Positions 40,739-43,386 of a stretch of DNA of 64,000 nucleotides are shown here, piece by piece. This DNA comes from an uncultured Ruminococcus sp. (GTDB taxonomy: Bacteria > Bacillota > Clostridia > Oscillospirales > Ruminococcaceae), in the NCBI GenBank assembly GCA_964556595.1, contig CAZKXB010000001.1, positions 48,214 to 112,213 of the forward strand, written 5' to 3'. The position numbers and the translations under genes were made by a program. Position 1 is the first letter of the stretch. Every line of letters starts with the position of its first letter. Under the pieces are notes generated by a model. That model worked only from the letters and a program-made list of their open reading frames with translations, had not been told where the DNA came from and did not search any database.

Positions 40739-41995
40739 ATGACACTTATAGAACAGCTTAGCGACCAGATTATAAATGACGCAGCCGAAAAGGCAAGAAA
40801 CCAGCTTCGCCCCGATTACGCAACGGAAAATTACGAGCGCAGCTATCTGGATTTGCAGAATATAATCAGAAAGCAGGAAGAAATAAAGCCCATTCTCGAC
40901 CCCGCAGCTTTCGCCCTTGATATGCACCAAAGGGCAAGGGCGGTTGCCGCTACATTCCAGCTTGCGGTTATCAACAGCCTTGTTGCAACCCACGCGATAA
41001 ACCAGAATATCGACAGCTTCTTTGACAATCCCGAAAACGCGGATTTCTTCAGCGATATGTCGAAGGAGCAGGCAGACAACTTCCGTCAGCAGCTTAAGGA
41101 TACCGTAACCGAAAGGCTTGCCGTAAAAGCAAAAAGCCAGCCCGCACAGAAATTTGTAAATGACCTTACCGAAAAATTCAACAGCACCGTTGTAACCGAG
41201 CGCGACAGAAACTACTTTGAGCGCAGCGCAATGTTCCCCATAATCACAACGGTAAGAGCCATACAGAATGGCGTAGAGCCTGAGCTTTCCGTACCCCAGT
41301 CTGAAAGCCACACTGCCGCAAAAATCACCGCAGACGCTATGGTTCACGATTACTTATGGCTTCGTGACGAGCGCCAGACGGTGGAAAAATACATGAATGA
41401 TGTTATAATTCCCTACGAAGGCAAGGACGGTATAACCGTAGACAAATTCTGCAAGCATTTTGAGGAAAACAAGATTACCTCCGCGGATAAGAAATGGGCA
41501 GAGTATTTCTTTGACAAAGAAGTGGATATCAGCAAGGACCCCGCACCCGATTTCAGCCAGTTTATGATTGACGGTCTGCCTATGTTCACCGAACAGCAGA
41601 TAAAGGAATCCGACCCCGCAGAGCTTAAAACACAGGTTATTGGCAGAGCGCTTCAGGGCGAGGACATAGTATATCGGGACGGTATTCACCTTGGTTATAT
41701 AAACCCCACCATAGAGCGCGACCTCAACCATAAAGACAGCCTTATAGACAGGATTATCGACTTTTTCAAAGACCTGCTCGGCATTGACAGAACACCGCGC
41801 GACAGAATAATCAACGAAAGGTCACGCCTTGGTCATTCTAATTTCCAGGTTGCACCTGCTCCCCTGCGCGAAAAGGTGACTTTTGATGAGCTTTCGGGAA
41901 AAACCACCGTTGACAAGGCGATAACCAAGCCCGCCCCCGAAAAGAAAGCGCTGGAGAAAAAAGCCCCCGAAAGATCCACGCCCCAGTTCAAATGA
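40739..41995 (+). CDS. Unknown 418-aa protein, paralog A
   Basis: GAAAGGA RBS; long ORF; clear similarity to the next ORF. Confidence 0.88.
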   Translation: MTLIEQLSDQIINDAAEKARNQLRPDYATENYERSYLDLQNIIRKQEEIKPILDPAAFALDMHQRARAVAATFQLAVINSLVATHAINQNIDSFFDNPENADFFSDMSKEQADNFRQQLKDTVTERLAVKAKSQPAQKFVNDLTEKFNSTVVTERDRNYFERSAMFPIITTVRAIQNGVEPELSVPQSESHTAAKITADAMVHDYLWLRDERQTVEKYMNDVIIPYEGKDGITVDKFCKHFEENKITSADKKWAEYFFDKEVDISKDPAPDFSQFMIDGLPMFTEQQIKESDPAELKTQVIGRALQGEDIVYRDGIHLGYINPTIERDLNHKDSLIDRIIDFFKDLLGIDRTPRDRIINERSRLGHSNFQVAPAPLREKVTFDELSGKTTVDKAITKPAPEKKALEKKAPERSTPQFK

Positions 41996-42099
41996 TAACT
42001 CAAGCAACTCCCCGCTAGGGACGAATTAAGTTAAATGCACAGCTTTTGTGACATAACAGGTCAAGTACCTTATTAAATTATATTAGGAGAATATTAACC

Positions 42100-43386
42100 A
42101 TGTCCGTATACGTTATTACAGATGAAGCCATTCTTAACACCATAGCCGAAAAGGCAAGACAGGAACTTAGCCAGCGCGGCAGTTTCATGTCGGATTTTTA
42201 TCACGAAACACTGGGACAGCTTGAACGGCGCGATTTTTTCACACCGCTTGGTCCCGCCGCTGAACTTGACAGTACCACGGCATTCATTGGGGCGATGGAG
42301 TTTGAAACCCTTGCCGCAAACAGCGTTGTTTTAACCGATATGTTTAACAAGGGCATTGACGAATTTTTCGCAGACCCCGCTAATATCCATAAATTTGGCG
42401 GCGCGGATAATGACGAGCTTGACGCCCGCCGTCAGCAGCTTAAGGAGTTTGTCACCGAAAAGCTTGACCTTAAGCCCGAAACCGAACAGGCGAAACAGTT
42501 TATGCAGGATTTGAAAACCGAATTTGACCGTGCGGTTACGTCAAACGGAAACGAAAGAACCAATGAGCGCATTAGATTTATCAAGGACTTTGTAACTCCC
42601 CTCAAAGCGGCTGTGGAAGCTATGGACGACCCAAACAAAAAGAACAGACAGGGTATCCTTAACAGCGCGGGCAGTGGTCTGGACAACCGCGTAAAGCGGC
42701 TTGCATTTGACGGTCTTGAGGACAAAGCGCAGCAGCTTGCCAGCGAGCGCGGAGTAATCAGCCACGCCGTAAAGAGCGTATTTATGCCGATAGAGAGCGA
42801 CAAATCCGTTATGCCGCATGAGTTCCTTGAACACTACAAGCAGGAAGGCTTTATCCCCACCGCCGAAGAAGCCGCATGGGCAGCCGAAGTTTTCGACCGC
42901 ATCACCGATGGCGGACAGGTGGATTTATCCCGCTTTATGCTTAACAAAGAGCCGTTCTTTACCGAGGCTCAGATAAATGACGCACCGATGTTCCAAGACA
43001 GCCTTAAAAGCAAGCTGGTTGGCGCAGTTCTGGCGGGAGATAAGGTTTCTATCCGCAAAGATGACGGCACTATGGCGCTTATAAATCCCCAGATAGTAGA
43101 CGCACGCAGGGAGAATATGTCATTCTTCGACAAGATAATAGACTTCTTTAAGGAACTGCTTGGCATAGGCAAGGAAAAAGAAGCCCAGCTTCAGCAGGAT
43201 ATCAGCGGCTTGCAGAACAATATGCAGAGCGTGCGCGATAAATTTGAAAAAAAGGCGACCGTAATACCGCGTGAAAGGATAACCTTTGACGAACTGAGCG
43301 GTACTGACGCGATTAAAAAAGTTACAGCCTCCCAAAAGCAAAACACCCCCGAAAAGAGCAAAAGCACACCCACAGCAGGTATGTAA
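42100..43386 (+). CDS. Unknown 428-aa protein, paralog B
   Basis: AGGAG RBS; shares motifs with 40739-41995. Confidence 0.88.
   Translation: MSVYVITDEAILNTIAEKARQELSQRGSFMSDFYHETLGQLERRDFFTPLGPAAELDSTTAFIGAMEFETLAANSVVLTDMFNKGIDEFFADPANIHKFGGADNDELDARRQQLKEFVTEKLDLKPETEQAKQFMQDLKTEFDRAVTSNGNERTNERIRFIKDFVTPLKAAVEAMDDPNKKNRQGILNSAGSGLDNRVKRLAFDGLEDKAQQLASERGVISHAVKSVFMPIESDKSVMPHEFLEHYKQEGFIPTAEEAAWAAEVFDRITDGGQVDLSRFMLNKEPFFTEAQINDAPMFQDSLKSKLVGAVLAGDKVSIRKDDGTMALINPQIVDARRENMSFFDKIIDFFKELLGIGKEKEAQLQQDISGLQNNMQSVRDKFEKKATVIPRERITFDELSGTDAIKKVTASQKQNTPEKSKSTPTAGM

Follow-up and report, generated by a model that had tools for sequence, protein, structure and literature searches.

We analysed a 64,000-nt stretch of the genome of an uncultured Ruminococcus sp. 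(hereafter the window; the whole genome is 2.49 Mb and 99.9%-complete), in which two adjacent plus-strand genes, A (P0001, 418 aa, positions 40739-41995) and B (P0002, 428 aa, positions 42100-43386), encode proteins with a shared C-terminal module that ends in a conserved tag. With moderate confidence, we read this pair as candidate substrates of a type IV secretion system (T4SS), which would recognise them through that C-terminal module. The proteins are leaderless, and in their relatives diverse bodies are joined to one C-terminal module with a tail of fixed length; moreover, the gene copies are dispersed and hypervariable, their promoter is shared with a T4SS operon, and they are inherited together with the coupling protein of that system. 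It is this combination that points to T4SS substrates. An earlier reading of the same DNA (hereafter the original prediction) had proposed a C-terminal export signal for the two proteins; the diverse bodies, the shared promoter and the co-inherited T4SS lend this proposal strong circumstantial support, and export itself is what we infer from them. Gene calls beyond the window were made with our own open reading frame (ORF) scripts.

The existence and boundaries of the pair were established by ORF analysis and BLASTP. The coordinates of both ORFs were confirmed exactly, and the products aligned end to end with 30% identity (BLASTP, E 3e-38), far beyond chance. All the sequence blocks listed in the original prediction were found, i.e., AEKAR, RQQLK..VTE.L, WA...FD, D(F/L)S.FM...P.FTE.QI, INP.I, IIDFFK.LLGI, RE..TFDELSG and a Lys/Pro-rich tail. 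The accompanying claim that the two proteins are much more alike at the C-terminus proved overstated, as the peaks of identity are spread along the proteins: in windows of 30 residues, the values were 0.37-0.43 for residues 91-150, 0.37 for residues 271-300, 0.30-0.37 from residue 331 to the end, and 0.07-0.23 between these segments. Neither a signal peptide nor a transmembrane segment was found, in agreement with what had been proposed; the maximum Kyte-Doolittle values over 19 residues were 1.5 and 1.16, and both N-termini are hydrophilic. No catalytic motif was found in the pair. The dN/dS ratios of orthologous pairs of A and B genes ranged from 0.17 to 0.24 (0.17 for gene A), and those of the neighbouring mraZ and rsmH were 0.02-0.05, indicating that A and B are real coding genes under relaxed purifying selection.

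Each gene has its own ribosome-binding site: a Shine-Dalgarno-like GAAAGGA at 40724-40730 (+) precedes gene A, and an AGGAG at approximately 42085-42089 (+) lies ~11-15 nt before the start of gene B at 42100. The pair is followed by an intrinsic-terminator-like hairpin, CGCCG...CGGCG, and a TTTTTT run at 43433-43450 (+), and then by a tRNA-Leu gene at 43511-43595; a terminator and an adjacent tRNA-anchored island had been noted in the original prediction, and the segment 43422-43595 is kept at 90-93% nucleotide identity in the related contigs L014 and L001. As the 104-nt spacer between A and B holds no promoter motif, B is probably co-transcribed with A, and the two genes would form a single operon, i.e., one transcription unit that probably runs from the promoter at 40658-40687 to the terminator at 43433-43450.

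Four elements make up the shared C-terminal part, which we examined next: an alpha/beta module, an amphipathic helix and a variable linker, with a box and its basic tail as the fourth. The consensus of the box is R-[EQ]-[KR]-φ-[ST]-F-x-[ED]-L-x-G; a weaker KVTAPP-like element stands a few residues further on, and the ends are basic (…KSxPTxGM, …KKGRTM, …SKGK). In almost every member, the tag starts 33-47 residues before the C-terminus (~30-47 in the tagged proteins of this genome). The tag of A is composed of the box REKVTFDELSG (residues 377-387) and a basic Lys/Pro tail (41867-41992, +), and was detected by the tag-only profile A3 with an E value of 1.8e-10. That of B contains the box RERITFDELSG (residues 391-401) and the tail ...KKVTAS...EKSKSTPTAGM (43270-43383, +), and was the top-scoring tag when the whole genome was searched with this profile (E 5.5e-13). 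Six tagged proteins with at least three architectures were found in this genome: the window pair, a second pair on contig C4 (C4:28972-31615), and two proteins of ~550 aa on contigs C60 and C67, whose N-termini are unrelated and which yet carry the same module, helix (SLWKKILMFFGI and SLWRRILRFFGL, respectively) and box. In relatives, the tag was also observed on a 662-aa coiled-coil protein rich in Lys, Glu and Gln with the helix in mid-protein, on proteins of 790-1060 aa with an extra domain of 450 aa between the helix and the box, and on mini-proteins of 77-142 aa. The box is thus found well beyond this pair, and the fusion to diverse N-terminal domains envisaged in the original prediction was observed in several unrelated architectures, at least four when the relatives are included.

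The modular anatomy was reflected in an AlphaFold2 model of A, generated from a 47-sequence alignment (pLDDT 83.5, pTM 0.67). The model shows a helical bundle from residue 1 to ~210, the alpha/beta module at ~216-326, the amphipathic helix at 335-347, a second helix and a low-confidence tail. On the DNA, the N-terminal all-helical domain predicted by this model (residues 1-~215) corresponds to 40739-41383 (+), and the small alpha/beta module to 41384-41716 (+); the latter contains the conserved blocks F..H, W.A..F, FM..G.P.F and K..V...L.G..V, and its predicted strands and helices have pLDDT values of 76-97. This module is present in two to three repeats in longer relatives (P0038, P0045, L024 with 753 aa, and L015 with 621 aa), and without the N-terminal domain in other tagged proteins (C60, C67, and L022 with 790 aa). 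Searches of Pfam, NCBIfam, PHROGs, PADLOC and PDB sequences with both proteins and the 47-member alignment retrieved no known family, and weak matches to KaiA, Filament and GvpC were rejected as noise. A Foldseek search against the PDB gave no match either with this model (best E 0.12) or with a poorer one (pLDDT 67).

A word-seeded search of 5.8 billion proteins retrieved five relatives, all from metagenome assemblies, and a HMMER profile search of 1.84 billion cluster representatives retrieved 72 clusters, 32 of them below 1e-30, with most proteins of 410-480 aa. Among sampled species genomes, the family was very rare: it was present in two of 301 from its own taxonomic family (the one under study and one congener out of three), in one of 401 from the order and in one of 399 from the class. 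No phage or plasmid relatives were found by tblastn, and a literature search retrieved no description of the ~420-aa family, the tag or the regulon described below.

To gene A belongs an extracytoplasmic function (ECF)-type promoter motif, TGTTAC-N16-CGTATAAA, at 40658-40687 (+), with the -35 element at 40658-40663 and the -10 element CGTATAAA at 40680-40687. It is placed 51 nt upstream of the gene A ATG and is the sole match in the window, in which 0.11 matches are expected by chance. The same motif, written across loci as yTGTTACrAA-N-GCGTATAAAC, stands upstream of nearly all the tagged genes examined; in all of the 29 sites, GTTAC and CGTAT are exactly 16 nt apart, and the sites are located 28-81 nt (mostly 37-65 nt) before the start codon. 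When the 2.49-Mb genome was scanned with a position-weight matrix, exactly nine sites were obtained with scores of 36-49 and none between 18 and 36, and the window site had the top score, 49.4. Four of the nine sites precede tagged loci, and two stand before 716- and 721-aa paralogs on contigs C18 and C100, which carry the module, the helix FSLWKAILRFFGIGK and, internally, the box EEKISFAQLG. The three remaining sites are all on contig C4: one at C4:36060, before an operon that encodes a STAS protein of 125 aa, a tagged protein of 77 aa and an ECF sigma factor (C4:36783-37283); one at C4:54483, before a LytTR response regulator; and one at C4:37314, before the T4SS operon. An alternative reading of the motif as a LytTR direct repeat was rejected, as its conserved blocks are not repeats and lie at -35/-10 distance from start codons.

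The sigma gene of the STAS operon encodes a product that matched sigma70-ECF with 110 bits (NCBIfam), and this sigma factor would be the one that reads the TGTTAC-N16-CGTATAAA motif. ECF promoters such as those of the Bacillus subtilis factors SigW and SigX have the form TGAAAC/TGTAAC-N16-17-CGTA. Like SigW/SigX-type regulons, the one described here has a -35 element ending in AC, a -10 element starting with CGTA, a 16-nt spacing, and a sigma operon with its own copy of the promoter. It differs in the -35 sequence, TGTTAC, and in the extended -10 element, GCGTATAAAC; control appears to be exerted by STAS/PP2C/HATPase_c_2 partner switching and not by a membrane anti-sigma factor, and the output is a secretion system plus its candidate cargo.

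The operon behind the site at C4:37314 was solidly identified as a T4SS by its domain matches. It encodes a pilin-like protein of the Mbov_0395 family (PF18895 T4SS_pilin, E 9e-11), a CPBP/Rce1-like protease, a VirD4/TraG coupling protein (C4:38950-40923; T4SS-DNA_transf, E 1.9e-53; TraG-D_C; TrwB_AAD_bind), two VirB6-like polytopic proteins (MMCAP2_0566 family, 195 and 212 bits), a VirB4 ATPase (Mbov_0397 family, 561 bits; P-loop_TraG / DUF87), and several surface proteins or lipoproteins without known domains. No relaxase, integrase or transposase was recognised within the T4SS cluster, and no VirB1- or VirB8-like gene in the operon. The coupling protein is the sole one in the genome at E ≤ 1e-10. 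The second family pair is situated 5.7 kb from this operon, divergent from the STAS-sigma operon, and directly downstream, on the same strand, of genes for an 842-aa dCache-HAMP-PP2C-HATPase_c_2 protein and a GNAT protein.

The tag and the coupling protein were inherited together. In four genomes, the tag-only profile detected 6, 7, 7 and 6 proteins, and an orthologous, full-length coupling protein (83-100% identity) was present in 4/4 of these; the two congeners without the family yielded no tagged protein and only coupling proteins of ≤33% identity. Hence, of the two export routes named in the original prediction, co-occurrence was observed with the T4SS, through the shared promoter and a coupling protein co-inherited in four of the six genomes compared, and not with type VII secretion (T7SS). 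WXG100 proteins are the hallmark of the latter, and the corresponding domain (PF06013) is absent from this 99.9%-complete genome; along with the lack of any Pfam match in A and B, this led us to reject a role as T7SS substrates.

Linkage of the machine, the sigma factor and the tagged genes was also seen in relatives. In the genome G195 and the contig L054, a single string holds a regulator, the ECF sigma factor, the motif, one or more family members, a 78-aa tagged protein, the pilin, CPBP, the T4SS coupling protein and, further on, VirB4 and SBP, in addition to a 127-aa tagged 'MGYFDDP' protein. Contig L056 has the same layout as the genome under study, with motifs before the STAS gene and before the pilin gene. 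On a Lachnospiraceae contig (L055) whose coupling protein is 73% identical, a 500-aa protein encoded between STAS and CPBP contains an amphipathic helix, SGIWKRVKGVFG, the box KERVSLSSLL ~45 residues from the C-terminus, and a tail. On an Enterocloster-like contig (L053; coupling protein 71% identical), only a small 'MAYFDSP' protein with a box-like RRPVTLEQL was found, and Agr-like LytTR regulators replace the ECF sigma factor. Homologues of the coupling protein at ≥71% identity fall into >120 clusters, including Lachnospiraceae and Enterocloster. As the coupling protein is more widespread than the ~420-aa proteins, the latter are best seen as a lineage-specific addition to the machine. The T4SS clade of L053 and L055 occurs in chromosomal housekeeping contexts, beside ftsH or 3' of ftsZ-spoIIGA-sigE-sigG, with LytTR/Agr-like regulators in place of the ECF sigma factor, which suggests a widespread and unstudied type of T4SS in gut Clostridia.

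The loci of the family are hypervariable. The window locus is delimited by the DUF1540 gene and mraZ on one side and tRNA-Leu on the other, and in three related assemblies the flanks are 88-94% identical at the nucleotide level, whereas the gene content differs: A and B in the window; a minus-strand coil gene, A (94% nucleotide identity) and two clade-II genes in L001; a 476-aa member and a coil gene, both on the minus strand, a B counterpart (B', 65% nucleotide identity) and two clade-II genes in L014; and a 479-aa member on the minus strand in L029. Effector loci often vary in gene content in this manner. The closest relative of A, encoded at the same locus of the metagenome contig L001, is 93% identical, and the nearest relative of B in the syntenic locus of a close species (L014) is 47% identical. 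The dS between B and this counterpart was 1.03, against 0.3-0.4 for the flanks, suggesting that cassettes were exchanged and not simply inherited.

In the maximum-likelihood tree, A and B were placed in different, well-supported sub-branches (A-type and B-type), and the second pair likewise has one A-like and one B-like gene. The description of A and B as tandem paralogs in the original prediction is correct, but the pair is not a recent duplication, as the sub-branches are deep and separate and the A-like plus B-like arrangement recurs. Relatives form arrays that comprise two to four divergent paralogs, or more; in other lineages, the gene at the head of an array and those behind it stem from two deep clades. 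The arrays contain tagged paralogs alone, and no small untagged ORFs were seen between them.

Based on these data, we propose the following sequence of events. A dCache-HAMP-PP2C-HATPase_c_2 sensor and a STAS protein would control the ECF-type sigma factor by partner switching; the sigma factor would read the TGTTAC-N16-CGTATAAA promoters and turn on, together, its own operon, the T4SS operon, the LytTR regulator and all the tagged genes, the window pair included. The coupling protein would then dock the tagged proteins through their C-terminal module and pass them to the channel, so that the C-terminal part would act as a recognition module for a minimal, Gram-positive T4SS encoded elsewhere in the genome and resembling those of Mycoplasma integrative and conjugative elements (ICEs). 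The 77-aa tagged protein (…AERTPISFDELQGNTSPVRTVTK…; C4:36553-36786) deserves mention in this context. Its gene, between those for STAS and the ECF sigma factor, overlaps the sigma start (ATGA) and is translationally coupled to it, and the protein is conserved in G195, L054 and L056; speculatively, it could be a T4SS-exported anti-sigma or feedback element, by analogy with FlgM. In its fullest form, the proposal is one of a dedicated protein-translocating T4SS of Gram-positive gut Clostridia, with 6-9 tagged, hypervariable effectors per genome, a partner-switched ECF sigma factor and, maybe, a small tagged protein that serves as a FlgM-like secreted anti-sigma factor; we put this forward tentatively, as possible and not yet as probable.

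Several observations weigh against the assignment of A and B as T4SS substrates. No effector or toxin domain was recognisable in either protein by domain searches, and no immunity-like gene is adjacent. The proteins have no sequence or fold similarity to XVIPCD, the C-terminal signal of Xanthomonas/Stenotrophomonas T4SS effectors, or to any known secretion signal (Pfam, NCBIfam, PDB; Foldseek best E 0.12). Two regulon members, the 716- and 721-aa proteins, have the internal box only and no terminal tag. The co-occurrence of tag and coupling protein is based on six genomes, coupling-protein homologues far outnumber the ~420-aa family, and in Lachnospiraceae and Enterocloster only small or different tagged proteins were seen; PP2C and HATPase_c_2 modules are found also without the family. 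Searches for RNA sequencing runs holding the window sequence retrieved none, and DNA runs contained only small shares of it. Moreover, the annotation of this T4SS family is that of conjugal-transfer machinery; what the machine moves may thus be DNA, and the tagged proteins may assist in this transfer or travel along with it.

This last point leads to the main rival explanation, in which the tagged proteins are not secreted and are instead accessory parts of the T4SS, such as cytoplasmic or membrane-peripheral adaptors, chaperones or platform proteins that use the helix and tag to dock on the membrane or the coupling protein, or factors co-transferred with DNA in a conjugation-like process. The same co-regulation and co-inheritance would be seen under this explanation, the annotation of the T4SS family as conjugal transfer machinery agrees with it, and so do the small tagged proteins (the MxYFDDP protein and that of 77-78 aa), which are conserved and encoded within the T4SS and sigma operons, and the failure to find a toxin domain or an immunity gene. 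Machine parts, however, are normally single-copy, conserved and encoded with the machine, whereas here there are 6-9 dispersed copies per genome with 25-30% mutual identity, and repertoires differ among close relatives while the coupling protein stays 83-98% identical. We therefore regard an accessory role as unlikely, albeit the strongest competitor of the substrate assignment.

Partner-switching genes (PP2C, HATPase_c_2, STAS) are neighbours of family members at four independent loci (G000 C4, L015/L005, L028 and L025), although the genome under study has only three good PP2C genes. This adjacency counts in favour of our main reading, but one could also regard the tagged proteins as targets or partners of the partner-switching module, the T4SS being merely co-regulated; the HATPase_c_2 kinase, the PP2C phosphatase or a Hanks kinase/FHA pair would then use the box as a site of docking or phosphorylation, and the small tagged protein could be an anti-sigma factor. 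The presence of Ser or Thr before the invariant Phe in most tags would suit a phosphorylation site, as would the Hanks kinase with leucine-rich repeats and the FHA protein encoded downstream of the C18 regulon member, and the translational coupling of the 77-aa protein to the sigma gene would suit an anti-sigma factor. Nevertheless, the Ser/Thr position is occupied by Asn, Met, Arg, Asp or Lys in several members, FHA domains need phosphothreonine while Ser dominates here, 6-9 hypervariable paralogs are unusual for regulators, and such modules exist without the family, all of which renders this explanation improbable. Two related ideas were rejected: the box as a mimic of the STAS phosphorylation loop (F-x-D/E-...-G), where the phospho-Ser position is Leu and the likeness too short, and FHA binding of a pT-x-x-E motif in the tag, unlikely with Ser predominant. 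The genes directly 3' of the 716-aa member (C18:2394-5752) encode a Hanks-type Ser/Thr kinase of 604 aa that has leucine-rich repeats at its C-terminus, as well as an FHA-domain-like protein of 266 aa, and this pair may represent a further signalling layer of the system.

Upstream of and divergent from gene A is a gene for a 57-aa, Cys-rich DUF1540 protein (MGTEFANKHIGCTVKSCEHHC...KKKCC; 40313-40486, minus strand; Pfam E 4.6e-12), which is kept beside mraZ in L029. DUF1540 is present in the Clostridioides difficile exosporium protein CdeA (PMC7677010), and its distribution follows endospore formation (PMC2955703). This neighbour, together with SpoIVA in the genome, the abundance of Lys, Pro and Gln in the coil protein and the tails, and the fast-evolving repertoire, would fit A and B being lineage-specific spore coat or exosporium proteins, produced without a signal peptide by the mother cell, with the helix and tag directing them to the surface of the forespore. 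We consider this very improbable: SpoIVA is equally present in congeners without the family, the DUF1540 adjacency is restricted to the window locus, and the shared promoter is ECF-like, not of the sigma-E/K type, and also precedes the T4SS. It was this promoter, by leading to the T4SS, that demoted the spore-coat explanation. In the spacer between mraZ and the DUF1540 gene, ~190 bp (39968-40157) are missing from the syntenic L014 and L029, and on the subject, the blastn alignments to either side share ~30 nt; the structured element with 30-nt repeats at 39939-40186 therefore looks like an insertion or duplication of this genome's own.

The amphipathic helix spans S334-I349 in A (SLIDRIIDFFKDLLGI; 41738-41785, +) and S341-I356 in B (SFFDKIIDFFKELLGI; 43120-43167, +). 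It is amphipathic (muH 0.56-0.60); in P0001, it has the highest hydrophobic moment in the protein and contains the most amphipathic 15-mer (muH 0.6), and its column pattern is conserved, Asp341 included. Of 47 core members, 37 have a helix with a net charge of 0 to -2, and in none is it C-terminal; cationic helices (+2/+3) are found in the C60, C67 and coil proteins. Membrane helices of MinD and FtsA have a net charge of +3/+4. The original prediction had likened the IIDFFKxLLG segment to MinD membrane-targeting helices; its amphipathic character was corroborated, and a short, strongly amphipathic segment with a terminal Gly and a hydrophobic face of Phe, Leu, Ile and Trp is indeed common to both. 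The C-terminal position and the cationic face of MinD/FtsA helices are not shared: the helix is internal, 35-450 residues from the C-terminus, has a conserved Asp and a neutral or acidic character in the core family, and has no link to division proteins. It is thus a poor fit to an electrostatic membrane anchor of the MinD/FtsA type, and a protein-docking helix is at least as likely as a membrane anchor in the core family, while the cationic helices of the C60, C67 and coil proteins may confer some membrane affinity. The least probable explanation takes up the membrane-associating alternative of the original prediction and makes A and B MinD/FtsA-like peripheral membrane proteins in division or morphology. 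It draws on the strong amphipathicity, the cationic variants and the position of the pair upstream of mraZ, rsmH, ftsL and a penicillin-binding protein (PBP) gene, and is disfavoured, as the core-family helix is internal, with its conserved Asp and a charge of 0 to -2, the adjacency to the dcw cluster occurs in one lineage only (window, L014, L029 and L001), other family copies adjoin rplL, argS and other genes, and the proteins are missing from more than 1,000 genomes sampled across the taxonomic family, order and class, organisms that nonetheless divide.

As for the wider surroundings, the head of the dcw cluster (mraZ, rsmH, an ftsL-like gene and a class B PBP gene) occupies 34984-39481 on the minus strand, and its proteins are 92-98% identical to those of an uncultured Ruminococcus sp. 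metagenome-assembled genome (L014), which places the window in the L014 lineage. An Rfam search of 39000-46500 found two tRNAs and nothing else. Between the convergent tRNA-Leu and tRNA-Thr genes (43596-46102), the GC content is low (0.32-0.39 at 43600-44600), and this interval contains an ORF for a 144-aa polytopic membrane protein, a truncated sigma-like or helix-turn-helix fragment, and an intact gene for a 285-aa ADP-ribosylglycohydrolase-like protein (44830-45687, minus strand). In L014, a PnuC-like membrane protein is encoded after tRNA-Leu instead.

The possible significance of the tagged proteins as T4SS substrates lies in a long-standing question. According to a 2025 review, the functions of Gram-positive T4SSs are nearly all in DNA transfer, and whether these bacteria have dedicated effector-translocating T4SSs is an open question with one disputed example (PMC12857230). 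The locus described here offers a test of it, as it provides a candidate tag, a set of candidate substrates, a promoter and a sigma factor to turn the system on, and a machine of five or six recognisable parts, with related versions in cultivable Lachnospiraceae, e.g., Enterocloster. If the reading is true, Clostridia that abound in the gut and rumen would be credited with a new contact- or secretion-based mechanism of interaction, and a protein family and a T4SS signal type, both of them new, would come with it; if not, the tag and regulon would still represent an undescribed, tightly co-regulated accessory system.

Among known systems, the closest likeness is with the antibacterial T4SS of Xanthomonas and Stenotrophomonas. 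T4SS substrates carry C-terminal signals recognised by the all-alpha domain of VirD4, and the XVIPCD effectors (X-Tfe) of that system have a folded alpha/beta region followed by an unstructured tail, mostly of 26-42 residues, with a basic end (PMC8740702). Varied N-terminal bodies, a shared C-terminal alpha/beta part plus tail, a narrow range of tail length (26-42 residues there, a tag of ~33-47 here), a basic end, dispersed genes and a VirD4 coupling protein with an all-alpha domain (TrwB_AAD_bind was matched here) are found in both. In contrast, the host here is Gram-positive with a minimal, Mycoplasma-ICE-type T4SS that lacks VirB7/9/10, the C-terminal part has an extra amphipathic helix and a sharply conserved linear box, and there are neither catalytic N-terminal domains nor immunity genes. 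The likeness is one of analogy and not of homology.

With regard to the machine, the minimal T4SSs of Mycoplasma ICEs and Gram-positive mobile elements consist of VirD4, VirB4, VirB6-like and small membrane proteins (PMC12857230), and their NCBIfam families were matched here: Mbov_0395 (pilin-like), MMCAP2_0566/Mbov_0396 (transmembrane, twice) and Mbov_0397 (VirB4). Unlike those elements, the operon described here is chromosomal with housekeeping flanks, has no relaxase, integrase or transposase recognised in its cluster, and appears to be driven by a dedicated ECF-sigma/partner-switching circuit that co-regulates 6-9 dispersed tagged genes. The T4SS of the Streptococcus suis 89K island is so far the sole Gram-positive one with reported protein secretion (PMC12857230, PMC4897608); both are Gram-positive VirB4/VirD4 systems proposed as protein exporters, but that of S. 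suis belongs to a pathogenicity island that is mobile, and the substrate reported for it is not one of a family sharing a C-terminal tag, whereas here a defined tag and a promoter regulon occur in a commensal gut or rumen lineage. Collectively, these comparisons suggest that a T4SS with C-terminally tagged substrates is known in itself, and that what appears to be new here is the type of host, the tag and the regulatory circuit.

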